Source of the DNA: a virus
Reading direction: 5' to 3' (one strand)
DNA length: 64,000 nucleotides
Virus record (IMG/VR): IMGVR_UViG_3300025674_000028
Coordinates: 1-64,000 of that record
Shown here: piece by piece, positions 3,407 to 35,240 of the stretch
Layout: each line of letters starts with the position of its first letter
Numbering within the stretch: the first letter of the stretch is position 1
Position numbers and translations under genes: made by a program
Notes under the pieces: generated by a model
What the model was told of the DNA's origin: nothing
What the model saw: the letters and a program-made list of their open reading frames with translations, nothing else
Databases searched by the model: none

Positions 3407-4345
3407 ATGGACCACATCAGGTTTCAACTTGCCACAGGCAGTGTATGGATCACAACCGCTCAGGCGTGTGAACACATTAACGTCTCGCGCCAGGCTCTCA
3501 AGCAGTTGATTGACAGAGGTGTCATGCGTGCTCGTCGCCAAGACGACCGTAAGAACTATATCTTCCGTGACGACGTGTTTTATGTCTACCAGCAGCGTCA
3601 GCAGGCTCACGATGATAACAACCAAAGGGCCAGTTATGAAACACTGGTAGAACGTGGGATTTTTCCTGAATCGTTAGAGACCGCAAATGGATTTGATCTG
3701 ACGACGTGGGCTCAAAACAATCAATCGGAACTGCTGCGCTCCCGACTTGCGATCCCACCGACGCTGCCATCTTTAAATGAAGCTGGCGAAAAGGTAGATG
3801 AGCCCGTCACGCTGGCATTGTTGGCGCGACGCCTGCTGCGCGCCGAACAAGCCCTTAATACAGTTCTTGCGGGGCAATCGATCAACCCCATTCTATCGAA
3901 ACTCTCTCCGACAGACATCGCGTCGATCATACGTCGCACTAAGGCAGCGCTTCGACTTGGGCTTCACAGCGCGCAGGACATCACAAGCCTGTGCCAGCTA
4001 TATCTTCGACTAGACGCACACCACATGACGCAAATCAGTCAGTTTCCTGTGACGCACCCTGACATGGCTGCGGAAGTGTTAGAGGGCGGCGAAGTGGCGT
4101 ATCAGAGTTTGTACCGCATTGGTGATTACCTTATTGCTGCGGCTAGCCAATTGCCCGGCGCGGGACTGAAGGGCTCTGTGCACAATCGCACTCTGGACAT
4201 CGCCAGACAGGTAAAAAAAATCTTGTCGAAGCTGTGCTCTAATCAAGCAGGGATTGACTTCTTACTGCGTCAGGACGCCGGCCACTACTTGCCGGTCCCC
4301 TTAACTGAAATTGACCGATACATTTTGAATCAGGTCACGGGGTAA
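3407..4345 (+). CDS. Helix-turn-helix (MerR/excisionase-like) DNA-binding protein
   Basis: N-terminal WITTAQACEHINVSRQALKQLIDRG fits an HTH_17/MerR-type pattern; AAGGAG SD upstream. Confidence 0.65.
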   Translation: MDHIRFQLATGSVWITTAQACEHINVSRQALKQLIDRGVMRARRQDDRKNYIFRDDVFYVYQQRQQAHDDNNQRASYETLVERGIFPESLETANGFDLTTWAQNNQSELLRSRLAIPPTLPSLNEAGEKVDEPVTLALLARRLLRAEQALNTVLAGQSINPILSKLSPTDIASIIRRTKAALRLGLHSAQDITSLCQLYLRLDAHHMTQISQFPVTHPDMAAEVLEGGEVAYQSLYRIGDYLIAAASQLPGAGLKGSVHNRTLDIARQVKKILSKLCSNQAGIDFLLRQDAGHYLPVPLTEIDRYILNQVTG

Positions 4346-4400
4346 AAAAAAACCTCAACCCCCAGGACGGGGGGAGGTGCCTCCAGGACGGAGGCCTTTG
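4344..4400. terminator. Double-hairpin, probably bidirectional intrinsic terminator (repeat copy T1)
   Basis: Minus strand: GCCTCC-GTCCT-GGAGGC then CCTC-CCCCC-GTCCT-GGGGG-TT-GAGG-T9; lies between convergent genes. Confidence 0.8.
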
Positions 4401-4403
4401 ATC

Positions 4404-4652
4404 CTACAAGAGGCTTTTAGCCTCCCTGTAGGAGTTTGACAGCGCGCCATACAGCGCGCTGTCAAACCCGGCGCGAGCCGGGCTGACGACGACGTCGTAC
4501 ACGTAGTTGGTGGCCATCAGCCACCAACTACCGGAAAGGAGGCCCCACTGGACCTCCTTTCCGTCGACGAGGAGGATGACTCCATCCTCCCCGTCAAGGA
4601 CAAATTCGAAAACCTGGTCTCGCCAAAATTTTTTCTCAATGACCTTGCGCAT
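4404..4652 (-). CDS. Small accessory hypothetical protein (cassette ORF 1)
   Basis: 82 aa, GAGGAG SD, flanked by leader repeat A and terminator T1. Confidence 0.7.
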   Translation of the reverse strand: MRKVIEKKFWRDQVFEFVLDGEDGVILLVDGKEVQWGLLSGSWWLMATNYVYDVVVSPARAGFDSALYGALSNSYREAKSLL

Positions 4653-4843
4653 ATCATCTCCTCATGCGCTATGCAGTGCCTTTGTGTCAGGCGCACTGCT
4701 TGTTCCTGTGAGTTGCCAGCACAACCATTGTGCTTTCAACAACTCGGCGCCTTCTCGGCATGGAGGATCTGCTTCCTCTGGGCTCACCACTTGCGGTAGG
4801 TGACACCGGCCTAGTGAATCCATGCAGGTCTTCGCATGGAATT
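4647..4843 (-). repeat. Structured leader repeat, copy A
   Basis: Ungapped 197-nt match to 7645-7841, about 85% identical by manual count; serial hairpins with compensatory changes. Confidence 0.9.
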
Positions 4844-4976
4844 GGTCTGACGCATTTGTGGTCTTTGCCGCAGCATTTCCACTCTAGGCCATGCGTGGCC
4901 ATCCCAGAGAGCATTGCACTCTTCTGAGTCCCCCTACATCCGGGGTCGGGTTTGTCCGTCTTCACCCTCGGACTCC

Positions 4977-5363
4977 CTAGGAAAGGGAGTGCTGGCGGCA
5001 CTCCGAGATCAGACGAACAACAGCCAGGGCGAACCCTGGGTAGTTGCCGATTGTCTCGTAGTGCACGCCATACGAGGGTGCGCCGGTTTTGAAACCGAGC
5101 GCGACGGCTTTCGGCGTGGTGTCGTAGACGCACACGTCCCAGACCCAACCTTTTTCACGTTGGATCCGGATGACCGTGGCGCATCCGCTCTCGCCGGCCT
5201 GCCCAATGAGCCACGTGTTTTTCACGTTTCTCACTGGTTTGCACTTCCATCCACTCATGAACGGAGCGCTGGCCCGGTTGTCGAGCGTCCACCCTCCGCC
5301 CCAGAGCAAGCTGGGACAAAGTCGGTTCGACACTTTCACGCCGCGCAACATAGGCTTGAACAT
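4977..5363 (-). CDS. Accessory hypothetical protein
   Basis: 128 aa, strong AGGAGG SD, downstream of the GGACATAAG motif at 5507-5515. Confidence 0.7.
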   Translation of the reverse strand: MFKPMLRGVKVSNRLCPSLLWGGGWTLDNRASAPFMSGWKCKPVRNVKNTWLIGQAGESGCATVIRIQREKGWVWDVCVYDTTPKAVALGFKTGAPSYGVHYETIGNYPGFALAVVRLISECRQHSLS

Positions 5364-5506
5364 AGTTCACCTCCTATTGTCACACTGTGTTACCCCACCG
5401 GGGACAGTCTCGGCTGGAGACTGACTCGACAGCACACACTTTGCCGAAGTGTGTGACACGGGACCTGCACTTCTTTTGGAGAATAAAGAAGTATGAGATC
5501 ATAATA

Positions 5507-5515
5507 CTTATGTCC
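5507..5515 (-). promoter_or_regulatory. Putative phage promoter motif GGACATAAG
   Basis: Intergenic; context AAAATCGGCTATTTAC-GGACATAAG closely matches the 7876 copy. Confidence 0.65.
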
Positions 5516-5596
5516 GTAAATAGCCGATTTTGTTAGGGTTTTTGAGGTCATAATGTATGGCCATTTGCCGTGGTTTTGAAGGGCTGACGAGGGGGT

Positions 5597-5655
5597 AAAA
5601 AAAACGCTCAACCCCAGGACGGGGGAGCGGCCCAGCAGGACGCAGGGGCTTTTTG
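5597..5655. terminator. Double-hairpin terminator (repeat copy T2)
   Basis: Minus strand CGCTC-CCCC-GTCCT-GGGG-TT-GAGCG-T8 preceded by a second GTCCT-loop hairpin; homologous to T1. Confidence 0.8.
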
Positions 5656-5661
5656 ACTCGA

Positions 5662-6462
5662 TCACGTCATCGGTCCGATGTCGTGATCATAGATTTCGGC
5701 GCCGTCGAGGTGAGCGCCGTCTAGGTCGGCACCTACGAGTAGAGCGCCGGTGAGGTCTGCACGGCGGAGGATGGCGCCTCTAAGGATTGCATAGGGAAGG
5801 AAAGAGTTCGACAAGTCGGCGCCCGTGAGGTCAGCGCCGGTGAGGTCGGCGCATGTGAGGTGGGCGCCGTCGAGGTCGGCGCAGCGCAGGTCAGCCCCCG
5901 TGAGGTTTGCGTTGGAGAGGTTTGCCCCCGCCCGCTTACCTTCTAGGGCGAGATCAGCGCCGCACAGGTCGGCGCAGCGCAGGTCGGCGCAGCGCAGGTC
6001 GGCGCCGGTGAGCTTTGCCTCGCGCAGGTCGGCGCAGCGCAGGTCGGCGCCGGTGAGGTCGGCGCCAGTGAGATTGGCGCCGTCGAGGATGGCGCTAGTG
6101 AGGTTGGCGCCGGTGAGGTTGGCGTCGGTGAAGTCGGCTTTGTCGAACACTTCGACCTCCGTGAGGATGGCGCCGGTGAGGTTGGCGCCCCTGAGGTCGA
6201 CCTCTGTGAAGATGGCGCCGGTGAGGTTGGCGCCGGTGAGGTTGGCGCACCGGAGATAAGAGCCGATGAGAACGGCGTTTGTAAGGTTGGCGCCGGTGAG
6301 GTTGGCGAGAGCGAGGTTGACGCCGGTGAGGATAGCGCTGGTGAGGTTGGCGCCCGTGAGGTCGGCGCCCGTGAGGTCGGCGCCGGTGAAGTCGGCGCCG
6401 GTAAAGTCGATGCCGGCCAGGTGCTGGCCGGCGCGGTCGACACCTTGAAAATTTGTGCGCAT
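5662..6462 (-). CDS. Pentapeptide repeat protein
   Basis: A(D/N)LTG and ADLRC repeats span almost the whole 266 aa; 15-nt DNA periodicity; AAGGAG SD. Confidence 0.95.
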
Positions 6463-6550
6463 ATCATCTCCTTATGCGCTATGCAACACCTTTGTGGCAG
6501 GCGTGTCGCTTACTCCCATGGGTTGCCAGCACAGCTATTGTGCGGGCAAC
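6457..6550 (-). repeat. Structured leader repeat, copy B (gene-proximal three hairpins only)
   Basis: Matches the gene-proximal ~94 nt of copies A and C. Confidence 0.85.
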
Positions 6551-6553
6551 GGC

Positions 6554-6578
6554 AAAAAAATATACGCAGCCGGCGTAT
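6554..6578 (-). terminator. Intrinsic terminator
   Basis: ATACGC-CGGCT-GCGTAT-A-T7 on the minus strand, downstream of ORF 6649-7650. Confidence 0.65.
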
Positions 6579-6648
6579 GCGGGTCACTCTCTTCCGGAGA
6601 ATGACAACGGGCGTATGTTTAACGACCTCGCCAGGTCGGGGCCGCGGC

Positions 6649-7650
6649 TCAATCCGTATGGATCACAACCGTGACCCGGTCGAGCCCGTGGACGCTCGAC
6701 CGGGTCGCGACAAGTTTCCCGTCGTGCAGCAGGCGCTGCACGCGGGAATCCCCGTCCACGCGGAAGGTTCCCCAGGCCCCGAGGCCCCAAACCTCAAGGG
6801 CCTCGAGGGTGTGTAGGGGGCTCCGGCGCATGATGCGCCAGAGGAGCGACGGAGTTGGAGAGGAGGCGAAATCCTCCATCTCCATCTCCGTCATCGGAGC
6901 GTCTTCTGGGAAATAGTAAGAGGGAGGGTTTTTTGCCCCCCATCCCCTCACGAGTTCCACTAACCGACGTTTTCTGTCGGCTCCGATCTCCTGCCCCTCT
7001 GCCCCCGCTAGGAGGAACGGCAGACGCTCACAGACTGCCTGCCGTTCGAGGCCCAAAGCGCGGGCCTCCTTTTCGGCAGAGAGCCGCTTTGTTTCCAAAG
7101 CGGCTCTCTGCCGAGCCTCCCTCTCGCGGCGCCTTAGACGAGGCCACACCTCGCCTAAGGAGAATTGAGCGCTGAAGACTCTCCCTTGGCGCTCTCGAAA
7201 CGCCCGCCACCACTCATGGTGGTATGGGTCACGCCGGAACGAGTCATCGTCATCGACCCATTCCCCGTAACTGCATGAGAGGTCGTCGGCCGCCTCCACT
7301 GCCTCAAAGAGGCAGTGGTACTCTTGCTCCAGCGTCTGCTGAAGCAAGAGTACGTAGGCGCTCCGCATGGAGCGCCAAGGGAAACCTGTCGGGCGGGCGG
7401 CGAGGTCTCCGTCCGCCCACTCGGCCAGGGCGCGATGCGCCTCGCACGTCTGCCGGCCCCACCCTGTGAGGCCGGAGATGTACGCGAGGGTGACCTCGCC
7501 AGCGCCGCCCGCTACGGCGCTGTTGTAGAGAGACTGCAACGCCTTGTCGCGCTCCAGCCCCTCCTCCCGACCCCCCGCGATGAAGCGGGCCTTTTCGATG
7601 AAGAGGTTGGTGTTGTTGGCGGCGTTGTTGGTGGGGTCCATCTTGCTCAT
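6649..7650 (-). CDS. Accessory hypothetical protein (start revised to ATG 7650)
   Basis: GGAG SD and the same position relative to the leader repeat as the starts at 4652 and 6462; GC-rich coding style. Confidence 0.7.
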   Translation of the reverse strand: MSKMDPTNNAANNTNLFIEKARFIAGGREEGLERDKALQSLYNSAVAGGAGEVTLAYISGLTGWGRQTCEAHRALAEWADGDLAARPTGFPWRSMRSAYVLLLQQTLEQEYHCLFEAVEAADDLSCSYGEWVDDDDSFRRDPYHHEWWRAFRERQGRVFSAQFSLGEVWPRLRRREREARQRAALETKRLSAEKEARALGLERQAVCERLPFLLAGAEGQEIGADRKRRLVELVRGWGAKNPPSYYFPEDAPMTEMEMEDFASSPTPSLLWRIMRRSPLHTLEALEVWGLGAWGTFRVDGDSRVQRLLHDGKLVATRSSVHGLDRVTVVIHTD

Positions 7651-7841
7651 GTCATCTCCATATGAGCAATGCAACACCTTTGTATCAGGCGTGTCGCTTG
7701 TACCTGTGAGTTGCCAGCACAACCATTGTGCTTCCAACAACTCGGTGCCTTCTCGGCATGGAGGATCTGCTCCCTCTAGGCTCACCACTTGAAGCAGGTG
7801 ACGCTTGCCCAGTGAATCCATGCAGGTCTTTGCGTGGAATT
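7645..7841 (-). repeat. Structured leader repeat, copy C
   Basis: 197-nt homologue of 4647-4843; begins about 35 nt downstream of the GGACATAAG at 7876-7884. Confidence 0.9.
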
Positions 7842-7875
7842 TGACCGTCACAATGGAGGTATGGCGGTCAACAGT

Positions 7876-7884
7876 CTTATGTCC
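7876..7884 (-). promoter_or_regulatory. Putative phage promoter motif GGACATAAG
   Basis: AT-rich intergenic region; followed by ACTG-TTGACCGC, like the plus-strand copies. Confidence 0.7.
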
Positions 7885-7941
7885 GTATATAGCTAATTTT
7901 ACACGGTTTTTTTCCTGTCTTTATAAGGCTTAAAAACGCTC

Positions 7942-7969
7942 TTTTGGACATAAGACCATTGACCGCACA
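7942..7969 (+). promoter_or_regulatory. Putative phage promoter (28-bp exact repeat of 35169-35196)
   Basis: TTTTGGACATAAGACCATTGACCGCACA, divergent from the 7876 copy. Confidence 0.75.
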
Positions 7970-8004
7970 TGTCGTGCTGTCCTACCAAAAACCAAGGAGA
8001 AGAT

Positions 8005-8766
8005 ATGAACAACGTGGAAGGTGTGACCGTGAGCGATGAGGTAGCCAGCGCAATCATGGGCGCTCAGCCAAGCCAGTCGATGGCGTTTCATGCCAGTCAG
8101 GTCTACCAGCTGATAACAGACCCTGTGAAAATCACAGTCAACAACGGTCCAGACCAGCCGGGCCATATAGAGACGGTGCCACAAATCTCCCTGCTCCAGG
8201 AGATTTACAAAAACAGCGATGAGGTCCTTGCCAGAGTGCGCGAAGGTGTGGGGATTGTCTGCGAGCGACAAGACAAAAACAGCGAGGCAATCTGCAAGGA
8301 AGTGAAGAAGTACTGTGACACTGTGACGCAGACGCTGGCGGCGAACCAAGAGAAGCTGCAGGAAAATCAGACGGCAGGACACAACATCGTCTGCGGGAAG
8401 ATCCACGCCGCAGAAGAGCGCGTGTCGCACTATGCTCGCATGGGCATGGTGGCAAGCTGCGCAGCGGCAGTGGCAGCGCTTGCGGGCATGTTCTTCAGTC
8501 AGCGGTCTCCGTCTGCTCACGCCCCGCATTTCGCGCCACAGATGCACGATCAGCAGATGCACGCACAGCGAGCAAGGGAGCGGGCGCTGGCAGACAAGGT
8601 GGACAAGCTCACTGAGACGGTCAACCAACTGTCACAGTACGCGCAGGCGCAGCAGCCTGTCTTTGCTGCGCTTCAGCATCAGATGATTCGCCCAACCACT
8701 GTGTCGGCGGTCAACATCCCAACGCCTGCCGCAGCACAGACGGGCGACGCACCTTTGTTTGGCTAA
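8005..8766 (+). CDS. Gln-rich coiled-coil protein with one hydrophobic segment (putative early protein)
   Basis: AAGGAG SD before ATG 8005; MGMVASCAAAVAALAGMFF segment. Confidence 0.7.
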   Translation: MNNVEGVTVSDEVASAIMGAQPSQSMAFHASQVYQLITDPVKITVNNGPDQPGHIETVPQISLLQEIYKNSDEVLARVREGVGIVCERQDKNSEAICKEVKKYCDTVTQTLAANQEKLQENQTAGHNIVCGKIHAAEERVSHYARMGMVASCAAAVAALAGMFFSQRSPSAHAPHFAPQMHDQQMHAQRARERALADKVDKLTETVNQLSQYAQAQQPVFAALQHQMIRPTTVSAVNIPTPAAAQTGDAPLFG

Positions 8767-10676
8767 CTGTTGGCAAACTCTGCCAGCTCCATGTTTCGCC
8801 ACATCTTGGCTGACATGAGGTAGAGCAGGCTGTGAAAGGCGTCGTCTGGGTCTGTGTGGTTGTACTGCATCTGACGCAGCTTTGGTGAGCGATCGGCGTA
8901 GATGGTGAGGATATCCTGGGCGAAGCCTCCATCTAAGCGTGGAGGCCCGTCCATGATTTCCCATGAGGGCAACACCACGCGTCGATTTTTTAGCTGATTA
9001 AAGATCTTGGCCATCCACCGAGTCTTGTTGCATTGAAACTGGTTGCTTGTTGGATCCCAACTCATGATGGCTGATTGATTGGTGTATCGCATAGGAATGA
9101 AGCGACGCATGCCGTCTCGAATTCTTTCGCGCACGCCATCGATCATGCCCCAGCCAAAACCTGCATCGCAAAAGCAGATGTCAACGTGATTGGCTTCCAT
9201 GAGGTACGAAATCTCATCCCACAGGAACCGGGGGTCCGCTTCAACGCCCATGTACCTGCGCATAAAGAACACTTGGAGGACACTGCCCACCTCGGGGACG
9301 TGGTTGACGTACCCCATGCTCACGACAGTAAACGCGCCGTCGCCTGTACCCTCACCCCAGTCAATCCCCATGAAGACATCCCACGCAGGGTCAGCAAGCA
9401 CCTCTTTTGGCGCAAGGCGCTCTAGGGACGTGATGCCTGGGTGGCACAGCCTGATCAGCTCCTCTCGGCTTAGCGGCTTCTTTCCGCTGTCCCACGACAC
9501 GCCAAAGATCTCATTCATCTTTGACGCTTCAGACGCTGTGGGGTCATTGACATCTTGGTAGAAAGCCAGCCAACGCTCAGCGAAGCGGTCCCTGTCATAA
9601 ATTGATGTGTATGGCATCAAGCAGCGGCTGAGATGAAATCCTTCAAAGTCGCTGTCTAAGGCTCCCGTCCGTACCCAGTTGCAATGCTTGGACAAGGGAT
9701 TGATGGCGCGTCCGCATTTGATGCACAGCAGCCCCTTACGGCCAATCATGCGATCTACTTCATTGGGATTTTGGGGCGGAAAGTTAGGGTGGTTGCATCG
9801 GTCGCAAGGAATCAGCCACAGGTTCTTAGTTGAGCGCTTAGACCAGATTTGCTCAATGGGATTGTCAAAGGTCAGTGGCGTGCCACTGAATAGCGTGATG
9901 GCACCAAAGGGCAACTCACTGTTGTTGAGCGTGGCGGTGATGACGGGAATGTTGGCCATGACGAAATCCTGAATCTCATCAATGGCGAGCACGTCGGCCG
10001 CGATGCCGCGAACACGGTTGGCGTTTAGGTGCGCCGAGCGCATGACGATGCGGCTGTTGTTGCGTTTGAGTCGTTTGAAGAAGCGGTTGTAGTTGACGAA
10101 CCCACCGACAAACTGCTTGAGCCTCGGTGAGATGCGCAGCGTGTTGTCGACGCGCTCATCAGCAAACTCCTGCATGTTAAGTCCTGCGCTTGTCACGTAC
10201 AGCGCGCAGATGTTTGAGAGCATGCTGATGAACGTCCACAGCTTATTGCCAAGGCCAGTGGATTTTTCGGTCTGACGTGCGGCCTTGACCAGCGTCTTCC
10301 TTGCCAGCCGCGTAGACGCCTCGTCACCTCCTAAAGCGACAATACGCTTCTTTGTGTATTCGCTGTCGTAGATGGCCTTTTGCCACGGTCGCAGGTGCAG
10401 GCTGATGCTCTTTCCCATCGGGTTGCTGCGATCTGGCGCGTCAAAGTTAATCCGGTACTGCACAAACTCGCTTGGCAGCTCCGGCTGCGTAAACGCTCCG
10501 GGTCTCAGGCGTTTGGATGCGCGCTCCTGTGCCCACTGTACAGCACGGACATAAGCCTCTTGCTCGTCCCGCACATCGCTGCCCCGATCAAAGGGTACGC
10601 CTGTGCGCGGATCTATCACTTTTGTCTCTACGCCTACGGGTATAGAGCTCTGTACATTAACCAATGGAGAAGTCAT
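8763..10676 (-). CDS. terL: Terminase large subunit (lambda GpA-like, with Zn-ribbon)
   Basis: LRPWQ adenine-binding motif, ARQTEKST Walker A, LAIDEIQD Walker B, SGTP coupling motif, CxxC pairs, GIDWG and PDDAFHS nuclease motifs. Confidence 0.92.
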   Translation of the reverse strand: MTSPLVNVQSSIPVGVETKVIDPRTGVPFDRGSDVRDEQEAYVRAVQWAQERASKRLRPGAFTQPELPSEFVQYRINFDAPDRSNPMGKSISLHLRPWQKAIYDSEYTKKRIVALGGDEASTRLARKTLVKAARQTEKSTGLGNKLWTFISMLSNICALYVTSAGLNMQEFADERVDNTLRISPRLKQFVGGFVNYNRFFKRLKRNNSRIVMRSAHLNANRVRGIAADVLAIDEIQDFVMANIPVITATLNNSELPFGAITLFSGTPLTFDNPIEQIWSKRSTKNLWLIPCDRCNHPNFPPQNPNEVDRMIGRKGLLCIKCGRAINPLSKHCNWVRTGALDSDFEGFHLSRCLMPYTSIYDRDRFAERWLAFYQDVNDPTASEASKMNEIFGVSWDSGKKPLSREELIRLCHPGITSLERLAPKEVLADPAWDVFMGIDWGEGTGDGAFTVVSMGYVNHVPEVGSVLQVFFMRRYMGVEADPRFLWDEISYLMEANHVDICFCDAGFGWGMIDGVRERIRDGMRRFIPMRYTNQSAIMSWDPTSNQFQCNKTRWMAKIFNQLKNRRVVLPSWEIMDGPPRLDGGFAQDILTIYADRSPKLRQMQYNHTDPDDAFHSLLYLMSAKMWRNMELAEFANS

Positions 10677-24025: not shown

Positions 24026-27000
24026 CTAGTAGTCCCCTTGCTTGTTACGCGCCCCTCCTGCCTTTGATGCTCTGTTAAACTCAGCCGCATACGTCAACGC
24101 AGGGATTGGGTGCGTACTATGATAATTTGAAGTAGCGCCTGTTTGCGCTGCGTCTGTCAAGACTTGGCGGAGGTTGTTGTAGTTAAAGCGCGCTAAGAAG
24201 TCCTCCCGATACTCTCTCGGCGCGACGTCCACACCTCGCAGCAACGGCCGCACTGTCAGGTTTTTAAATGTCTTGTGAAGTTTCTTTGCTTGTGCTTCGG
24301 GAATCTTTTGACCGGGCAGCAGGTCTGCACCGCCAGGATCTGCAACCTCGACAGTGCCAGTCATGGCACGAACCACCCCTTCAACATTTCGCCGCAGCAC
24401 GCCCTTTTCCGCAAACAAGTTGCCAAGACGATTTGTCAGGTAGCCGCGAACCTTCTCCATGTCACCCGTGGCGTCTAAGATTTCCTTTGGGTTTGCCAGG
24501 CCGTCAGTCAAAACGTCGCCCTTCCCTATGCGTCTCCCCTTTTTGTAAAACCTCGGCGCATCGTACCCATCAGGAGCGTTGCGATTGCCGGGTAAAAAGA
24601 TGGTAGGGTTGGGGGCGTTGCCGGCTGTCTGTATCTTCAAATCCCAGCCGCCTTTTTCGCGATTTCTCTTTATGGTGTCGACCTTACCTGCGACTGGAGA
24701 CACCACTGCTTTTTGACCGCCCATGGTTCCTGGCATACGAAGCAACGCGCTTGCTTCTTGGAACAGGTTTTTCGCAGTGCTCGTGTCCCCTGGCTCGTAA
24801 ACGCCGCCAGCGTGGAAGGTAGACAGCGTAAGCTGAGTGGATCTTTCACCGATGGCCTGCGAAGCCAAGATGCCGAAGTTGTTGCCGATAGGCAGCGTCT
24901 TGCCGTTGGGTAATGCACCGACGCACTTCTGACACACACCTTCTTCAGCTTCACAGGTGGCAGGCGAGCGTACCTTAATCTTGCCTTGCCCCTTTTGGCG
25001 CATGAAAGACAGCACATTGCCGTCTACCAGTCTGTTGCGGTTCCAGCTTTTGTTGCCACTCTTCACGGAGGACGCCAAAAAACGTCCTTCTAAGTCGTCT
25101 TCCGGACGGTTGATGTCCACGTCAACGCCAGATTTGGTTCCACAATCTTCGACGGTGACTGTCATGTCCATCGCTGTGTTAATCAGCTGCTTTGTAAGAT
25201 AGCCAGGATCTTGAACCTCAATAACTTTTGACACTGTACCCATTCGAGCGCCGTGCAAAGTACCCCAGTAGCCCGTAGCGTCCAGTCCCTCGGTGTAGCT
25301 CTTCATAATCGGAGTGCCGACAACATCTCCCCGGCCATCCAGCACAGCGCCGGCGCCCATCATGACCTGTTGAAGCTGGACGGGCTTGACGCGAGCACCT
25401 GAAAAGGTCAACTCCGCGTTGACGTTGCTTCGCTGAGTTGGCTGACTTGTGATTCGACCCTTGAGGACATTCATGCCTCGTTTGTTGAGCTTACCTAGGA
25501 CGTCGTCAAAAATGCCGCGGATTGCACGCTGGTGCTCGTTCTGAGTGCGACTTGTTGCCTTTGCAATCTGCAACTTCTTCAGCAACGTCTTTTCAGCCGC
25601 CTCACGTTCTTTTTTTAGAACTGGCTTGAAGTCTTCCATTAAAAGAGTCGTGCCCGTCAACGTTGCTTGCTCAGCTCCAAGCGTACGAAGCCTGTTGGCG
25701 GCTCCACCGAAGGCCTCTGGCGTCTTTACCGCAATGTGAGTCGTCAGCTTTTTAATGTCCTTCTTTGACAGTCCGATGTCGCCATAATTCTGTGAAACGA
25801 TGCCGGCTGATTGGAGAGAATCAAGCGTCATGCCCGCAGGCAGCGCCTGGTTTACGAGCGATCGTCCAAGAGTTGTTCTCTGGCCGCCTACAGTAATCAA
25901 GTCATTGACGTCGATCTTGTCTTCAATAAACGCTTTGCGAGCGTCACCAACCTTCGAAAAACTGCCGACAGGCTTCTTTTGCACGGGATTCCGAGTGATC
26001 CTGTTCAATCCAAGAATCGCCTCGTGACTCAACGTGTATGCCAGGTCTCCTGACGCTAGGCTAAAGAGGTTTGCTTGCGGTCTGAGCTTTTCCTTTAACT
26101 CTCTGTTAGCTGCTTTTGAGACTGGAGCGAACACCGCCATCGTGTCGCCGTCATTGTCAGCACCAAACCCTCCGTATACCAACGGGTTCAATTGTATGGT
26201 CTTCTCATCCGTCAGGCGAGTACGAAAGCCCTGGAAGCCGTACTTGTGCAACACGGGATCTCGCTTAAGAGCGACCCAATTAGTTTTGACAGTTCGTTCA
26301 AGAATGCGGTCAACTTCCTTGTCTTTCTTGCCGTCTGATGCGTATTCGCCAAGTGCTTTATTGAATCGTCTGAGCTTGTCCCTACCTACAGTTGTCTTCC
26401 ATTGCGGGTGGCTTTTCTTGTATTCGGCTTCAAGCATTGGCCGATAGACTTTGACTGCCAGATTTCTCGGCAGTGCAATCTCGTCGATGTCCAAATCGCC
26501 ATTTGGCCCAATGACAGTGCGGCCGCTGAGAACTTGACGTCGCTGCACCAGCGTCTTTTTCAACAGAGATTGCTTGAGATCTCCGACCTCCCTGCCGTTT
26601 GTGACGGGGCGACGCCCTGTGATTGTGCCGACGATGCCTTGATACTCAGCGCCGCTTAAAGGAGCACTACCTTCGGTCTGCATAAGCTGCAGCATGCCAG
26701 CGTACAAACCCGACTCAAGCTCTGAAATGACCTTCTGCGGCAGTTTGCGCTTCTTTGCGTCCTTTAACTGCTCATCAATCATGGCAAGGTCACGATACAG
26801 GTAGTTCACGTCCCCAACGACAAAATCTCCGGAGTCCTTGTCGATTTTGAAGTCACGCATATTGGCAGGCAGTACAAGCACCTGCTTACGCATAAATGCT
26901 TCAGCTGGAGACAGTTTGTTGCGCTCAAGCATGTCTATAGTTTTGATTGTCCGGTAAGCGCTCGAACGCTTTGAGGCCTTCTTGTCATTCTTGGCGACGT

Positions 27001-30000
27001 CGTAGGCTTGCTTACGCACGCTTTTGAGGTCGACATTTTTGAGCATGTACTCTACGGCAGCAGCACCATATATCTCCTTGTCGCCGTCTTTGACTCCCTC
27101 AATGCCGGCCATAATGTTTTCGAACTGCTTCTTTTTCAGACCAAGTACGTCCCGGATTCCATTCTCGTACACTGGATTTGGGATGTTTTGTGAGAGCTCA
27201 AATCGAGACCAACGCTGACCTCCGCGACCTCCTGTCGCTTTGGGATCAAACAATCCACCCTTGTCTGGAGACATCGTACGTGCCGAAACAGTCCGAGTAG
27301 GACGCGCGATGACATTGTCCTGACCGTTGGTCTTGGACATAATCAGGACGTCACGGTCTGTTAAGGGCTTCATTCGAAGCTCGCTATGTTTAGCACTTCG
27401 CTCTACATCAATGCCCGCAGCTTTAAGGTAATTTTGGAACCGCACAAAAGCTCCGGGTACTCTACCTGGAGGCAAAGGCCGGCCGGCTGCCAGCGCATCC
27501 CACACTTCCGGGCGGTCTTCAGAACTGTAGAGCTGGGCAGAACGTAAAAACTCGCGTGCGTCCTGGGCAAGAAGACCGTAGGTTCCCAACTCACCGAGGC
27601 TTTGTGCGCCGTCTTTACCCTTACTGGCCAGTCCGGACTCTTGGAATGTGCCAACTCCGCGACCTTTGCTTTTGTGGTCAACTTGATGCTTAGCCTTGAG
27701 TATGTACTGATTCCCGACCCCGATGCTTTTAAGAGTCTTGCCTGATCGAGGGTCATACAAGTCCTCCCCGTCAGCGACGCCGGCCTCTTTCAGCTTTTGA
27801 GCAACAAAGTCCCAGTTCGACTCGTATTTGTAGTTCTCAACAATTTCAGGTGCGCCTGCTTTCTTTGCGATCTTACCTAAAAACGTCTCAAAGTTCTGGC
27901 TGGGGTTGATGCGTCCAGTCACCGCCGCAGGGTTATACAGAATCTCCAGGTGCTCGCCTGCACTGTTACGCGGCATTTCATCGTCAGGGACAATCTCAGC
28001 GATGGTTGCTTTGTTGGCGTGTCGGCCATAAACCTTGTCGCCGACTTCCATAGGCTCGACAGTCTTTACGTAGACTTTAGCGCCGATGACGTTGCCATCG
28101 CGGTCACGTTCTTTTGCAACGTCTACAACCTCGCCTCCATGACTGTGATCCCATCGTTTTTCAAAAAAACGACGCGCCCTCTTTGCGCCTCTACGGTCTT
28201 GAGTCTTGTAAAGCCCAACCTGCTTAGTCCGCTCCAACATCTCTTTGCCAGCAAGAGCGTCTGACTGATGTCCTACGAGGTAAAGGTCTCCAGGCTCTAT
28301 GATCGTACCGACTTTGATGACTCCGTCGTCATCCAGCTTCGTATCGATGTCCGTTGGAAGTGGCGTACTGACTGTCTTGCGCCAAAACTTCTTACCAAGA
28401 CGCATCGTATCGCTGGCGGCGCCTTCCTCATACATATGAAGGCTTGCCATTTTGTCAGCGGCTGATTGGCTGACGGTGATTGAATCCTCAAAGGTGGATG
28501 TATGGTAAGGCAAATATGCCGTTTTCAGGTTCACGCCCATTGCCAGTACGCCGTCCTTTGTAAACGTACTGTCTGCCAACAGGTCACCCTTTTTGATTTC
28601 ATCGCCGACCTTGACGGTCGGGGTAGAGTCGAGGGGGGCGCCACCGCCAAGCATCAGGTTTTTCGGCAGAGCAATTTGAACTGTCTTCCGCTTACCCTTT
28701 GGTAAAATCTCGATGTATCTCTCGCCCTTATCCTTATCCACAATGCGCTTGACGACACCGTCGTAAGCGGAGCGTACAGCGCCTGCCTCTTCAGCAAGTA
28801 ACGTCTCTGTGGAGTGAGTGACGCCGTCAAATTTGGTTTGCACTAACGGGGCTTCGCGGCGCAGCAGAGGCACAGATTGAGTCGTTTGCTTGTCGCTGTA
28901 GCCGATACGGCCGCCCTGAATGCTGTTTACAAAGGGAATGAGCGCACTGTTGGTGTCGAAGAGGCTTGCACTGTCTTTGAGGTAGTATGCGACCTCTGAC
29001 GGCTTTACACGAACAATCTCGCCATCTCTCCAACCCTTGACCATGCCTTGAGCATCGACTTTAGGCTTAAACTTGCCTCCGTCCTTGGTCCACTGATCAA
29101 ATGCTCCAATGACTTTGCCGACCAGCTTATCTGGACTGACGTCAACGCTGCGCCCTGATGGTGACAACATGTCGGCCATCAGCTTGCTGTGGCCGATATT
29201 TCGATCCGTCACGGATGAAGTATCTTTTACGATCCTCGTGCGAATTGGCACATTTAGGATGACGCCGGCCCGACCCGACTCCGGCGTGTGGACAGGATCA
29301 AGAAATCCAACACTGCCAGGATTAAGTAACTTGGCGTCTTTTGGAATGGCCATCTCCGCGCCAATTGCGCCCTCGCCCATGATGGTCGTCGAGGTGGCTT
29401 GTCCAAACGCGTCTAAAGGCGTCGTACTTGTATCTGTACGTTGCACCATGGACGTTGACGCTCGTCCTTTGATGTTTTTCTCAAAAGGACTGCCAATCAA
29501 CTGATCAACTTTGATGGGAGTTTTGTTGTCAGTATATCGACGCAGACGTGATTCGATGCCCCTGACATACTTTCTAACAGTGGACTCACGTCCCACTGAC
29601 TCCGCGAGCAAGTCAGCCGGACTGTAAATTTTCTTCAGTGCAATCGACTCACGGTCATCCTCGGGTTCGCCGTTTGCGACTTGTTGAAGTCTGGAAAAAC
29701 TGGCAAGCAACGTCTTTGCGCTTATGCGGTCTGACTTAGTGCCAAGTGTGACTGCCGTGATGGATGGGTCGACGCGGCTTGTGTTGAACTGATCTTTGAG
29801 TTGAGTAATGACTGCATCAAACTCGATGTCGTCTTTTTGCCTTTTGTACCGGGGGAAGACCTGACCGTACAGGTTTCGCATGGACTTCTCAAAACGCTCA
29901 TCTGTACTCTGACTTATGATTGCCTTAGCGGTCTTTTTGCCTACGGCCTTTTCTAAGTCTTCGTTTTTAGCGCCGAGCAGCTTAGCGATGTCCCAGACCG

Positions 30001-30664
30001 GGATTGATTTGCTGCTCTTGTACAGCAGCTTAAAGTCAGGATCGTCACCCGTGCGGTCAAACAAGACTTTAAAGCTGCGCACGTTGCTTGATGTCGCCGG
30101 GTCAACGTTAAACTCAGTGACGATGTCGCCTGACTCGTTCGTGCGCGTAAATACACCAGGCTTACGACGCCACTGATGCATCATGAAGCGTTTTTTCCCG
30201 TCGACAATAAACGATCGGTCAAAGACCGGCGTCGGAATCTGACCAAGCTGCACTCTCTTGCTGCTGACCACCTTGCCTGTCTTGGTATCAACCACTTCAA
30301 AGTCACCAAAGGCGCGGACGCCATATGTCGACTTCACGCGGCCCTTTGGCTCTCGCAGCGTTTGATAGATTTTTTTGTAGTCTCTAGGGTCTGGGATGTC
30401 TGTGTGTTGGATGTCGCCCTTTAGTCTAAGACTGTACCTCCCGCCTTCAATCGGTTGATCGTAGGTCCGCTGCATCGCTTGCACGACCTCTTTCACCACA
30501 GTCTCTGCGGTCTCTGCGGGGTCAGGCAAGCTGCGAAAGGTTTCTAGAAATTCTTGACGCTGAGGGCTGACCGCTGTCGCTTCTGACAGCTTCTCTACAA
30601 ATGACTGCTCTTCCGCATCCCACAATACTACGTCGCTCTCAGGCGTATCTGGAAAGTCAGTCAT
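24026..30664 (-). CDS. rpoBC: DNA-directed RNA polymerase, beta-beta' single-chain fusion (start revised to ATG 30664)
   Basis: Beta motifs: FIVDG..RRKPGVF, PVHTPESG, LIPF..QSVPL, FEDSITVS, GDKVYGRHANK, YILKAKH, GAQSLGE. Beta' motifs follow in frame: GGLFD, RDPVLH, GADNDGD, HGAR..GYLT, RSPATC..CQKC, QAIGERSTQLTLSTFHAGG. GAGG SD before 30664. Confidence 0.96.
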   Translation of the reverse strand: MTDFPDTPESDVVLWDAEEQSFVEKLSEATAVSPQRQEFLETFRSLPDPAETAETVVKEVVQAMQRTYDQPIEGGRYSLRLKGDIQHTDIPDPRDYKKIYQTLREPKGRVKSTYGVRAFGDFEVVDTKTGKVVSSKRVQLGQIPTPVFDRSFIVDGKKRFMMHQWRRKPGVFTRTNESGDIVTEFNVDPATSSNVRSFKVLFDRTGDDPDFKLLYKSSKSIPVWDIAKLLGAKNEDLEKAVGKKTAKAIISQSTDERFEKSMRNLYGQVFPRYKRQKDDIEFDAVITQLKDQFNTSRVDPSITAVTLGTKSDRISAKTLLASFSRLQQVANGEPEDDRESIALKKIYSPADLLAESVGRESTVRKYVRGIESRLRRYTDNKTPIKVDQLIGSPFEKNIKGRASTSMVQRTDTSTTPLDAFGQATSTTIMGEGAIGAEMAIPKDAKLLNPGSVGFLDPVHTPESGRAGVILNVPIRTRIVKDTSSVTDRNIGHSKLMADMLSPSGRSVDVSPDKLVGKVIGAFDQWTKDGGKFKPKVDAQGMVKGWRDGEIVRVKPSEVAYYLKDSASLFDTNSALIPFVNSIQGGRIGYSDKQTTQSVPLLRREAPLVQTKFDGVTHSTETLLAEEAGAVRSAYDGVVKRIVDKDKGERYIEILPKGKRKTVQIALPKNLMLGGGAPLDSTPTVKVGDEIKKGDLLADSTFTKDGVLAMGVNLKTAYLPYHTSTFEDSITVSQSAADKMASLHMYEEGAASDTMRLGKKFWRKTVSTPLPTDIDTKLDDDGVIKVGTIIEPGDLYLVGHQSDALAGKEMLERTKQVGLYKTQDRRGAKRARRFFEKRWDHSHGGEVVDVAKERDRDGNVIGAKVYVKTVEPMEVGDKVYGRHANKATIAEIVPDDEMPRNSAGEHLEILYNPAAVTGRINPSQNFETFLGKIAKKAGAPEIVENYKYESNWDFVAQKLKEAGVADGEDLYDPRSGKTLKSIGVGNQYILKAKHQVDHKSKGRGVGTFQESGLASKGKDGAQSLGELGTYGLLAQDAREFLRSAQLYSSEDRPEVWDALAAGRPLPPGRVPGAFVRFQNYLKAAGIDVERSAKHSELRMKPLTDRDVLIMSKTNGQDNVIARPTRTVSARTMSPDKGGLFDPKATGGRGGQRWSRFELSQNIPNPVYENGIRDVLGLKKKQFENIMAGIEGVKDGDKEIYGAAAVEYMLKNVDLKSVRKQAYDVAKNDKKASKRSSAYRTIKTIDMLERNKLSPAEAFMRKQVLVLPANMRDFKIDKDSGDFVVGDVNYLYRDLAMIDEQLKDAKKRKLPQKVISELESGLYAGMLQLMQTEGSAPLSGAEYQGIVGTITGRRPVTNGREVGDLKQSLLKKTLVQRRQVLSGRTVIGPNGDLDIDEIALPRNLAVKVYRPMLEAEYKKSHPQWKTTVGRDKLRRFNKALGEYASDGKKDKEVDRILERTVKTNWVALKRDPVLHKYGFQGFRTRLTDEKTIQLNPLVYGGFGADNDGDTMAVFAPVSKAANRELKEKLRPQANLFSLASGDLAYTLSHEAILGLNRITRNPVQKKPVGSFSKVGDARKAFIEDKIDVNDLITVGGQRTTLGRSLVNQALPAGMTLDSLQSAGIVSQNYGDIGLSKKDIKKLTTHIAVKTPEAFGGAANRLRTLGAEQATLTGTTLLMEDFKPVLKKEREAAEKTLLKKLQIAKATSRTQNEHQRAIRGIFDDVLGKLNKRGMNVLKGRITSQPTQRSNVNAELTFSGARVKPVQLQQVMMGAGAVLDGRGDVVGTPIMKSYTEGLDATGYWGTLHGARMGTVSKVIEVQDPGYLTKQLINTAMDMTVTVEDCGTKSGVDVDINRPEDDLEGRFLASSVKSGNKSWNRNRLVDGNVLSFMRQKGQGKIKVRSPATCEAEEGVCQKCVGALPNGKTLPIGNNFGILASQAIGERSTQLTLSTFHAGGVYEPGDTSTAKNLFQEASALLRMPGTMGGQKAVVSPVAGKVDTIKRNREKGGWDLKIQTAGNAPNPTIFLPGNRNAPDGYDAPRFYKKGRRIGKGDVLTDGLANPKEILDATGDMEKVRGYLTNRLGNLFAEKGVLRRNVEGVVRAMTGTVEVADPGGADLLPGQKIPEAQAKKLHKTFKNLTVRPLLRGVDVAPREYREDFLARFNYNNLRQVLTDAAQTGATSNYHSTHPIPALTYAAEFNRASKAGGARNKQGDY

Positions 30665-30677
30665 GTTGTCCTCTTTG

Positions 30678-35168: not shown

Positions 35169-35196
35169 TTTTGGACATAAGACCATTGACCGCACA
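35169..35196 (+). promoter_or_regulatory. Putative phage promoter heading the replication block
   Basis: 28-bp exact repeat of 7942-7969, located at the strand switch. Confidence 0.75.
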
Positions 35197-35240
35197 CGCC
35201 GACCTGCGTGTGCACTTTGTAAACCACAGAGGAGAAGACA

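Follow-up and report, generated by a model that had tools for sequence, protein, structure and literature searches.

A repeated non-coding leader with compensatory base changes is fused to the start codons of three unrelated genes in an uncultivated giant phage

The replicase operator of phages MS2 and R17 is bound by the coat protein, and the T4 proteins RegA and gp32 have mRNA targets. REP, ERIC and Correia elements, which are repeated in intergenic DNA, are dispersed and numerous, and carry terminal inverted repeats or promoters of their own. The PeSL cassettes of T4-type phages combine, in the available part of the published description, a strong sigma-70-type promoter with a transcription-terminating stem-loop (Arbiol et al. 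2010, PMC2839356). The locus analyzed here holds a repeated cassette that resembles the PeSL type: its 3' end bears the Shine-Dalgarno (SD) sequence and start codon of an unrelated open reading frame (ORF), and it lies in a variable region. Throughout, ‘the window’ is the whole stretch of DNA that was analyzed, 64,000 nucleotides in length.

The cassette belongs to an uncultivated giant phage of ~180 kb, in which the variable leader region adjoins the terminase gene; CheckV puts the completeness of the genome at ~40%. The phage encodes its own RNA polymerase, and its lineage is characterized by a fused beta-beta' RNA polymerase. Among cultured phages, the closest terminase is 24% identical, and the nearest relatives at the protein level, on contigs of up to 113.6 kb, have terminases that are 61%, 56% and 55% identical; this is a lineage of giant phages without a cultured relative. 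Small-share rows of the run table (oyster, seawater and others) were uninformative on habitat.

Three copies of one leader and their surroundings

A repeat search, together with BLAST against the whole 73,229-base record, gave three copies and no more of one leader repeat (A, B and C; Table 1). They share one orientation and are clustered within 3.5 kb of the one genome. Copies A and C align without gaps over 219 nt with 84% identity; over the shorter stretch for which ~85% identity had been predicted (4647-4843 and 7645-7841), 28 differences were counted in 197 nt, i.e., 86% identity. The aligned part of copy B (6456-6550, 95 nt) is 80-81% identical to A and to C. This 3' portion of ~95 nt is the sole part common to all three copies, and the 5' half has no counterpart in B. 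The original prediction had placed the end of the motif at 7871, which proved too far: the repeat stops at 7860, and beyond it is a hairpin (7841-7871) that is present in copy C only.

Table 1. Positions of the leader copies, their predicted hairpins, the genes behind them and the flanking repeats
Feature	Position	Strand	Remarks
Leader copy A, full length	4644-4862	minus	Intercistronic between 128-aa gene (4977-5363) and 82-aa gene
Leader copy B, 3' half only	6454-6552	minus	Starts right after intrinsic-terminator-like hairpin; ends at codon 2 of pentapeptide-repeat gene
Leader copy C, full length	7642-7860	minus	Directly downstream of promoter-like repeat; ends at codon 2 of 333-aa gene
Gene after A	4404-4652	minus	82 aa; no Pfam, PHROG or PADLOC family
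Gene after B	5662-6462	minus	266-aa pentapeptide-repeat protein (PF00805, 3e-74)
Gene after C	6649-7650	minus	333 aa; no Pfam, PHROG or PADLOC family
Start-codon hairpin of A	4647-4669	minus	GCGCAU/AUGCGC stem; GGAG in loop; AUG 4650-4652 paired
Start-codon hairpin of B	6457-6479	minus	7-bp stem; AUG 6460-6462 paired
Start-codon hairpin of C	7643-7669	minus	8-bp stem; 11-nt loop with GGAG (7656-7659); AUG 7648-7650 in 3' arm
Hairpin P-b of A	4673-4699	minus	7-bp stem
Hairpin P-b of B	6483-6509	minus	Stem as in C; loop differs at two positions
Hairpin P-b of C	7671-7697	minus	7-bp stem covarying with A; 13-nt loop nearly invariant
Hairpin P3 of C	7710-7738	minus	Inner GCACA/UGUGC, outer GUUG/CAAC; equivalents at 4712-4740 (A) and 6522-6550 (B)
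5' domain of C	7756-7823	minus	Closed by perfect 7-bp long-range helix, 7756-7762 with 7817-7823
Promoter- or operator-like repeat upstream of C	7862-7912	minus	Related copy at 5507-5543 (minus) heads second unit
Terminator-like hairpin with U-run	6555-6578	minus	Between 333-aa gene and leader B
Twin-hairpin terminator-like repeat	5591-5646	minus	Closes unit 1; sister at 4339-4394 closes unit 2

The 3' end of every copy consists of the SD sequence, the AUG and the second codon of a minus-strand gene, a fusion that was absent from the original prediction. Its register is identical in A, B and C (GGAG, 5 nt, AUG and then three more paired bases). Conservation takes in the first 6 nt of each coding region and reaches precisely to where the last hairpin ends, and sequence similarity between the copies ends 1-3 nt past that hairpin. 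The proteins encoded behind the three copies are mutually unrelated (best BLASTP E = 1.4). PADLOC assigned none of seven neighboring proteins to a family, and an Atlas search with the 333-aa protein gave a best score of 0.87 and no usable match. The element had been proposed as a multi-hairpin RNA motif of ~200 nt. As the copies are fused to the SD, AUG and codon 2 of unrelated genes, they form an mRNA leader cassette and not a free-standing RNA, each copy being the 5' leader or an intercistronic part of a minus-strand mRNA.

The surrounding repeats suggest two transcription units, each of which would run from a promoter-like repeat through genes with leaders to a terminator-like repeat; A and B are intercistronic within these putative units. 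No sigma-70-type promoter was found within the leader copies: a consensus scan of 4200-8100, with a consensus that may not be that of the host, gave two promoter-like sites where 1.0 was expected, one of which overlaps the terminator just upstream of copy B. The scan is a weak test for this reason and because the phage has its own RNA polymerase. No U-run follows any of the hairpins within the copies on the minus strand, and the terminator-like hairpins all lie outside the copies.

In metatranscriptome run X9, four contigs (at least 99% identity) tile 4496-5211, a stretch that includes leader A together with the 82-aa gene and the 3' portion of the gene upstream, and a fifth, variant contig lies on 4654-4734. 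This is a hint that leader A is transcribed, given by assembled RNA-library contigs that carry neither strand nor 5' end and could include DNA carry-over. The rest of 4300-8100 was uncovered for this phage in X9, which is not evidence that B and C are silent; DNA runs covered 25-28 of 30 bins.

That the leader matches no known riboswitch or non-coding RNA, as had been anticipated, was borne out by Rfam 15, which gave no match at gathering score over the whole 64-kb window. At E<=10, there were 11 weak matches in 4300-8100, none of them in any leader copy on the minus strand. No leader homologue was found among 50,697 phage records (blastn in distant mode), in IMG/VR contigs (patterns drawn from invariant parts of the promoter-like repeat and of both leader halves, 3' and 5'), in 185,579 prokaryote genomes (a stricter pattern scan), or by searches anchored on the 333-aa protein, the 82-aa protein or the terminase alone. 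A pattern scan of JGI metagenome contigs returned 21 stretches, all of them at chance likeness (44-79 of 212 positions identical to copy A). A covariance model of 101 positions and 22 pairs located no leader in 80 loci around terminase relatives (1.42 Mb) or in five whole related phage records; run with filters off over the whole 73-kb record, it recovered the three known copies only, and the next best score was 15.8 bits. The leader is known from one phage only, and since no homologue was found, nothing shows that its structure is kept over longer evolutionary distances. The part of the literature that was searched held no published description of such a leader.

Several known types of element were considered and rejected. 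A DGR template/variable repeat does not fit, as the differences between copies are of all kinds and are not confined to adenines, and the 40 larger ORFs scanned (of 57) included no RT family. Inspection of the differences and of how the GTT/AAC boxes are ordered ruled against an integron attC-like site, and an ssDNA promoter of the Frpo type was rejected because the phage is a terminase-packaged dsDNA phage.

Predicted hairpins and compensatory changes

The count of seven serial hairpins given in the original prediction is approximate. Three hairpins are common to A, B and C, namely P3, P-b and the start-codon hairpin. Hairpin 1, in the 5' half, is perfect in A only and is lost in C through one substitution that breaks its stem. 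The helix that closes the 5' domain of C is also found in A (4758-4764 with 4819-4825) and is absent from B. In A and C, the 7-nt segment GCAUGGA has two possible complements, one upstream, which is mismatched in C, and one 54 nt downstream. P3 can form 8+7 bp with a 3-nt bulge in A and C, i.e., a bulged helix of ~15 bp. Its pairing register differs in B, where the GTTGCC/GGCAAC extension described earlier is indeed present (arms 6522-6533 and 6539-6550), and the nine modeled P3 pairs are invariant. The 13-nt loop of P-b differs between copies at only one or two positions; in B, one of the variable positions (alignment column 59) matches A and the other is unique to B. Folding energy was unremarkable and not strand-specific (minus-strand z, -1.84 for C and -2.68 for A; plus-strand z, -2.76 for C).

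The start-codon hairpin has a stem of 6-8 bp with the AUG paired in all copies, and its 5' arm is the reverse complement of the start codon and codon 2. A and B have the stem GCGCAU/AUGCGC, and C has GCUCAU/AUGAGC, a single both-sided change that turns codon 2 from Arg to Ser. A further A-to-U change in C adds one pair and brings the weakened stem to 8 bp. Ensemble folding of each copy left the last three GGAG bases unpaired with a probability of at least 0.9 and the AUG unpaired with a probability of at most 0.11. In a window-wide scan, this geometry (a 6-bp Watson-Crick stem with an 11-nt loop) was found at these three starts only; looser start-codon hairpins, with G-U pairs counted, gave 15 matches over 14 start codons.

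The pair swaps predicted for the second hairpin, P-b, were recovered on the minus strand as a 7-bp stem, GCAGUGC/GCACUGC in A and GCGACAC/GUGUUGC in B and C. Three pairs are changed on both sides, and one A-U pair becomes G-U; as had been pointed out, this G-U pair works on the mRNA strand only and would be a C-A mismatch on the plus strand. When the 28 substitutions were placed at random on the minimum-energy fold of A, at least five compensated pairs were obtained in one of 20,000 trials; three pairs of this fold are broken in C. With the fold of C as the reference there are three compensated pairs (P = 0.016). In the three-copy alignment of the 3' part, all 66 cells (100%) are paired, and the observed covariation was reached in 4 of 500 shuffles.

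Selection on RNA structure, as first proposed, is supported by these compensatory changes, which occur in two stems common to all copies and in one pair of the 5' half and point to a function in RNA. They amount to very few independent events, ~3 (the P-b stem, one start-hairpin pair and one 5'-half pair), among paralogues of one genome. A single templated (quasi-palindrome) mutation of the DNA, instead of stepwise compensation, could account for the 4+3 adjacent changes in P-b. The copies are mosaic: in the three-copy alignment, B is C-like in P-b and A-like almost everywhere else, and the state of the P-b stem is therefore not simply one recombination block.

Possible functions of the leader

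The reading favored here, which is given an even chance, is that the repeat is a structured non-coding mRNA leader cassette, a translational operator common to three unrelated accessory genes of one phage. Its core would be the 3' ~95 nt, with P3, P-b (a conserved 13-nt loop on a freely covarying stem) and the terminal hairpin. The latter would expose the SD sequence GGAG in its loop and lock the AUG and codon 2 in its 3' arm, and could in this way gate the initiation of translation. The conserved upstream loops may be where a trans-acting factor docks, an RNA-binding protein of the phage or its host being the most likely kind, and with such a site in common the three genes would be switched together. 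No candidate for the factor was identified; a RegA-like Atlas row (score 0.86, 129 shared features) was at chance level. The cassette probably doubles as a homology patch for gene shuffling in the variable region, as PeSL cassettes do in T4-type phages. A bolder version, which is rather doubtful, is that the leader represents a new class of trans-regulated RNA operator, or of ligand sensor, of a deep-branching giant-phage lineage with a fused beta-beta' RNA polymerase. The P-b loop and start hairpin would then be the address tag of a small post-transcriptional regulon, one that could be grafted by recombination, start codon included.

It is exceedingly improbable that the leader is coding, either as an N-terminal extension common to the genes or as a small ORF. 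One frame is open both in A (a 53-codon ORF, 4662-4823) and in C (from GTG 7851, in frame with the 333-aa gene), but it holds 8 synonymous and 15 non-synonymous codon changes and peptide identity is below the 86% nucleotide identity. The differences between A and C are distributed over the codon positions as 10/7/11 (hand count), with no third-position excess. In A and B, the frame is ended by stop codons 9 nt short of the AUG, and all three copies have a good SD placed 5 nt ahead of the annotated AUG. With a peptide less conserved than the DNA and no excess of synonymous changes, a protein-coding leader was rejected. Copies that end exactly at ATG + 3 nt and the reverse-complementary 5' arm of the last hairpin would be accounted for by a miniature mobile element that inserts at start codons and reconstitutes them. 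Such an element is highly improbable too: terminal inverted repeats are lacking (every inverted repeat belongs either to a local hairpin or to the internal helix with arms 54 nt apart), a scan of the 40 larger ORFs (of 57) gave no transposase or nuclease family, and the only copies are three in one cluster and orientation, with none in the 80 related loci, the five phage records or the collection scans. The repeat might also be a recombination linker or expression cassette without an RNA-structure function, its hairpins being incidental or acting at the level of DNA or transcription. Consistent with this, it precedes unrelated genes in a variable region beside the terminase gene, is flanked by other repeated regulatory pieces and has mosaic copies. 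DNA runs from other samples also contain contigs that match A in one part and C in another (in one contig of run X3, C up to 7757 and A from 4765 with five other letters between) and, in three runs, a joint from 4963 to 6563; these joints have short sides (21-30 nt) at 80% likeness, are unreliable, and do not distinguish a recombinant from a further diverged copy. Diverged leader copies are present on contigs of runs X3, X4 and X5, among them a variant over 4769-4963. However, a linker leaves unexplained the both-sided changes that keep pairing, the G-U pairs possible on the mRNA strand only and the 6 nt of conservation into the coding regions, and the copies have no internal sigma-70-type promoter. 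It is considered unlikely.

Two further explanations accept a function in RNA. RNase III sites between phage T7 genes cut polycistronic transcripts, and the hairpins, above all P3, might similarly be cleavage sites or protective structures of a processing or stability module that separates polycistronic mRNAs. The intercistronic position of A and B and the long bulged helix that P3 can form in A and C fit such a module; however, it is P-b and the start hairpin that covary and not P3, whose register differs in B, and there is no sign of cleavage. This explanation is distinctly unlikely. The other is that a ligand-sensing riboswitch, or a polymerase-modifying antitermination RNA such as the put RNA of phage HK022, has been copied before several genes. 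The leader is long, conserved and structured, the alternative partners of GCAUGGA in A and C look switch-like, and C sits between the promoter-like repeat and a terminator that has to be read through to reach B. Both roles are opposed by the lack of an Rfam family in any copy even at E<=10, by an architecture of mostly serial hairpins without a conserved multi-helix junction, by the mismatch of the upstream partner in C and by the missing 5' half of B. The lack of a leader hairpin followed by a U-run on the mRNA strand also counts against them. Either role is very unlikely. The translational operator remains the favored reading, and it is this reading that the comparisons below concern.

Comparison with known elements

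As it stands, the leader adds one candidate to the cis-regulatory RNA motifs and is confined to a single genome, and its practical weight is modest for now. Like the riboswitch and cis-regulatory families of Rfam, it is a structured 5' leader with conserved loops and what would be an expression platform at the ribosome-binding site, whereas no Rfam 15 family of these kinds was found at gathering score in the window or at E<=10 on the leader copies. REP, ERIC and Correia elements are likewise repeated, hairpin-forming units in transcribed intergenic DNA; unlike them, the leader has three clustered copies, is without terminal inverted repeats and is fused to a start codon.

A closer likeness is to the operators of MS2/R17 and of T4 RegA and gp32, which are small hairpins at the ribosome-binding site that include the start codon and offer single-stranded bases a protein could read. 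As in the RegA regulon, several mRNAs carry one type of operator. In contrast to the phage operators, the SD sequence of the leader is in the loop and not upstream, there are two further conserved hairpins, two copies have a 5' domain of ~100 nt, no repressor has been identified, and there is no sequence or Rfam relation. If the proposed role is correct, this lineage would provide a compact, testable operator of ~95 nt.

The PeSL cassettes, which Comeau et al. reportedly also treated in 2014, offer the other parallel. As far as the available descriptions of them go, both are repeated intergenic cassettes (~100 bp in PeSL) that reach the SD and start codon of genes that are unrelated and have no known function, both are clustered in a variable region, and both have stem-loops and mosaic copies that suggest exchange between cassettes. 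On the same descriptions, the leader differs in having neither an internal promoter nor a U-run after any hairpin on the mRNA strand, in its length of up to 219 nt, in running 6 nt into the coding region and in its compensatory stems, and the two are unrelated in sequence. If the favored reading holds, newly acquired accessory genes would be wired into one control circuit by a portable RNA leader equipped with a ribosome-binding site, a start codon and regulatory hairpins of its own. The leader would then be a translational counterpart of the PeSL promoter-terminator cassettes, which are thought to drive gene shuffling in T4-type phages.

Leader copies and the genes behind them

A repeat search and BLAST against the whole 73,229-base IMG/VR record (about 40% complete; the window is its first 64 kb) found exactly three copies of the repeat, of which A and C are full-length and B comprises the 3' part only. 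The gapless A/C identity of about 85% noted in the original prediction was recovered, with 28 of the 197 positions then compared differing (86% identity). The covariance model that it had proposed was built for the shared 3' part and run with filters off over the 73 kb; it recovered these three copies, scoring 117-126 bits, with no further match above 15.8 bits.

The repeat had been described as a candidate RNA motif of about 200 nt. A free-standing RNA of that length is not supported, as each copy runs into the Shine-Dalgarno sequence, ATG and codon 2 of a minus-strand gene, ending GGAG, five bases, ATG and three bases, and the terminal ATG of every copy opens an ORF. The three downstream proteins are mutually unrelated (best BLASTP E = 1.4), and copy-to-copy similarity ends one to three bases past codon 2. 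Because this shared end falls at the GGAG, ATG and second codon of unrelated ORFs, the repeat is no independent RNA gene but an mRNA leader that supplies the ribosome-binding site and start codon; it is a portable, non-coding module joined to the starts of three unrelated genes.

The 82-aa and 333-aa proteins matched no Pfam, PHROG or PADLOC family. In every run examined, the pentapeptide-repeat gene attracted numerous partial matches that stem from other organisms; they inflate the depth over 5824-6458 and explain several of the small-share runs. Inside the 82-aa gene, at its 3' end, lies a long, near-perfect hairpin (4417-4489, minus strand; 16-bp stem) that matched the Rfam gyrA RNA below threshold (28.5 bits, gathering score 45, E = 3.5e-4) and is probably merely a strong hairpin.

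Features of the leader neighbourhood and of the phage
Feature	Position	Strand	Details
Leader copy A	4644-4862	-	219 nt; 84% to C, gapless
Leader copy B	6454-6552	-	only 3' ~95 nt matched, 80-81%
Leader copy C	7642-7860	-	219 nt; 84% to A, gapless
Long-range helix in A	4758-4764 with 4819-4825	-	perfect 7 bp
Long-range helix in C	7756-7762 with 7817-7823	-	perfect 7 bp
Gene after A	4404-4652	-	82 aa
Gene after B	5662-6462	-	266 aa; pentapeptide repeats, PF00805, 3e-74
Gene after C	6649-7650	-	333 aa
Unit 1 (inferred)		-	promoter-/operator-like repeat 7862-7912, leader C, 333-aa gene, terminator-like hairpin 6555-6578, leader B, pentapeptide gene, twin-hairpin terminator-like repeat 5591-5646
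Unit 2 (inferred)		-	promoter-like repeat 5507-5543, 128-aa gene 4977-5363, leader A, 82-aa gene, twin-hairpin repeat 4339-4394
Promoter-/operator-like repeat	7942-7979; 35169-35206	+	built around GGACATAAG
Promoter-/operator-like repeat	7862-7912; 5507-5543	-	built around GGACATAAG
Large terminase	8763-10676	-	PHROG 675, 1e-33
2261-aa ORF	24026-30811	-	RNA_pol_Rpb2_6 residues 729-1057, 7e-39; Rpb1_2 1425-1574, 8e-21; Rpb1_5 1842-2159, 6e-22 (Pfam)
DNA polymerase gene	43438-46059

Hairpins and compensatory change

RNAalifold on the three copies and the single-sequence folds recover the same three hairpins within the shared region, here called P3, P-b and the start-codon hairpin in 5' to 3' order. 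Of the roughly seven serial hairpins originally proposed, these three are common to all copies, and the first of the seven, in the 5' half, is perfect in A only. In P3 an inner GCACA/UGUGC lies within an outer GUUG/CAAC stem, and nine of nine modelled pairs are invariant; the hairpin is able to slip into an 8+7-bp bulged helix in A and C, and in B its outer stem is lengthened to GTTGCC/GGCAAC, as predicted. The 7-bp stem of P-b is GCAGUGC/GCACUGC in A (-10.9 kcal/mol) and GCGACAC/GUGUUGC in B and C (-8.4 kcal/mol), and it was here that the predicted three compensatory swaps and one G-U were located: three pairs are altered on both sides and an A-U becomes G-U. The 13-nt loop varies at one or two positions among the copies, so its sequence is kept while the stem is free to change.

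The start-codon hairpin has the stem GCGCAU/AUGCGC in A and B (-7.6 kcal/mol) and GCUCAU/AUGAGC in C (-4.8 kcal/mol), a both-sided change that replaces Arg by Ser at codon 2; a further A-to-U change in C adds a pair, giving 8 bp. The folding ensembles of all three copies leave the final three bases of GGAG unpaired (p at least 0.9) and pair the AUG (probability of being unpaired at most 0.11). With this geometry, a Watson-Crick stem enclosing an 11-nt loop occurs at only these three starts in the window, where a scan of start codons gave 15 looser hairpin matches over 14 start codons. The 5' half is confined to A and C. Its best-kept feature is the long-range helix, which encloses a hairpin with a further pair changed on both sides, from G-C to A-U.

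When the 28 A-to-C substitutions were placed randomly on A's own fold, at least five compensated pairs arose in 1 of 20,000 trials; five were observed, together with four pairs changed on one side yet still paired and three broken. With C's fold as the reference there were three compensated pairs (P = 0.016). Compensatory change thus exceeds random placement, in agreement with the predicted selection on RNA structure, and pairing is kept in this way in both P-b and the hairpin holding the AUG. Every one of the 66 cells in the three-copy alignment is paired and four pairs change on both sides, a result reached by 4 of 500 shuffles, and slid registers gave 0-1 such pairs. The covariation in the three paralogues perhaps represents three independent events, and a single templated mutation in a DNA palindrome could account for the 4+3 adjacent changes in P-b. 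Folding z-scores were ordinary and comparable between strands (-1.84 and -2.68 on the minus strand, -2.76 on the plus); as the plus strand folds equally well, the argument for the strand rests on the G-U pairs, gene orientation and start codons. The structural signal is real, and the function that we infer from it draws on three copies in one incomplete genome.

Neighbourhood, phage and population contigs

The neighbourhood is assembled from repeated parts in two units, whose order places C at the 5' end of a unit and A and B between cistrons. In three copies of the promoter-/operator-like repeat GGACATAAG is followed by ACYRTTGACCGC, and its core 9-mer is found at 8 sites in the window, where 0.25 would be expected. 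Four of these sites are intergenic and lie just upstream of genes, two of them facing each other in the divergent region 7862-7979. The repeat could serve the phage's own polymerase as its promoter. Both twin-hairpin repeats have GUCCUG-type loops in each hairpin, followed by a run of 8-9 U, and matched Bacillaceae-1 RNA weakly (25.2 and 18.6 bits; gathering score 35). The 128-aa gene heading unit 2 has its own hairpin-rich leader of about 145 nt (5364-5506, minus strand), unrelated in sequence to A, B and C.

The 2261-aa ORF joins RNA-polymerase beta and beta' domains and is by these a multisubunit-type RNA polymerase with both subunits fused in a single phage polypeptide. Terminase identity to the nearest cultured phages is only 24%, related IMG/VR records span 185-197 kb, and the protein collection holds relatives with terminases 55-61% identical. 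Given the low cultured identity, the size of the relatives and the encoded proteins, the source is an uncultivated giant phage, of freshwater-type metagenomes among the runs examined.

Four contigs from the metatranscriptome run X9 (at least 99% identity) tile 4496-5211, and a fifth is a variant on 4654-4734 with six differences and one gap. Together they span leader A with the gene behind it (82 aa) and the 3' portion of the gene in front; a 372-nt contig connects the stop codon of that upstream gene to the leader's 5' edge. These are assembled contigs that carry neither strand nor ends and may include DNA carry-over, and they offer a hint, short of proof, of cotranscription of leader A and its neighbours. 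The sole other X9 piece, a 78-nt match with 15 mismatches inside the pentapeptide repeats, probably comes from another organism. The DNA runs X3-X5 cover 25-28 of 30 bins. They hold a variant about 89% identical over 4769-4963, and a contig with one side matching C and the other A (7757 joined to 4765 across five additional letters). Additional diverged copies, or recombinants, therefore occur in nature. A joint of 4963 to 6563, which would delete the 128-aa and pentapeptide genes along with leader B, was seen in contigs of three DNA runs from other samples, and a joint of 6128 to 7656 in one run; with short sides (21-26 nt) and 80% likeness, these are weak signs of strain-level variation in cassette content.

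Possible roles and related systems

With the AUG paired and the Shine-Dalgarno sequence offered in the loop, the terminal hairpin would lower or gate initiation. A predicted trans-acting factor may read the conserved loops, making the three genes respond together. Translational operators of this kind are known from phages, in the MS2 replicase operator and the T4 RegA regulon, to which a joint response of genes sharing a leader is likened. The unit may double as a homology patch for cassette exchange, a role suggested by the mosaic copies and by a layout like that of PeSL, the promoter-early stem-loop cassette of T4-type phages (PMC2839356). B has the P-b stem of C and is otherwise A-like almost throughout; between the arms, too, one of the two variable loop positions agrees with A. 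The chances that this combination of translational gating, trans-acting factor and exchange patch is correct are about evenly balanced.

A pure recombination linker would leave such mosaics and is unlikely; the stems of the leader have been kept by compensation. A processing or stability module, built on the same hairpins, is rather doubtful. A riboswitch or put-like antiterminator is improbable: the expectation that the repeat was no known riboswitch or ncRNA was upheld, with no Rfam 15 family at gathering score in the 64 kb and all 11 weak matches at E<=10 across 4300-8100 outside the leaders, which belong to no Rfam family. Leader homologues were found neither among 50,697 phage records (blastn), nor by pattern scans of IMG/VR contigs, JGI metagenome contigs and 185,579 prokaryote genomes, nor by covariance model in 80 terminase-relative loci (1.42 Mb) and five whole related phage records, nor in searches anchored on the 333-aa and 82-aa proteins and the terminase. 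A mobile element rebuilding start codons is quite improbable, as terminal inverted repeats and dispersed copies are lacking.

That the leader is itself coding is the least credible reading. Both full copies share one open frame, which matches the phase of the genes behind them; however, A/C differences by codon position number 10, 7 and 11 (hand count), the encoded peptide is conserved less well than the DNA with its 86% identity (8 synonymous and 15 non-synonymous codon changes), and in A and B a stop codon ends the in-phase frame 9 nt ahead of the AUG. An upstream ORF of 24 codons, in a different frame, has exclusively non-synonymous A/C changes (read by hand) and is missing from B.

The reading that combines gating, a trans-acting factor and cassette exchange can be set against two known systems. 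The leader resembles PeSL in layout (PMC2839356) but lacks two of its defining features: no copy contains a terminator stem-loop or an internal sigma-70-type promoter, a consensus that may not be the host's and that a phage with its own polymerase may not use. With a translational operator the leader shares the hairpin at the start codon, to which a putative factor would bind.
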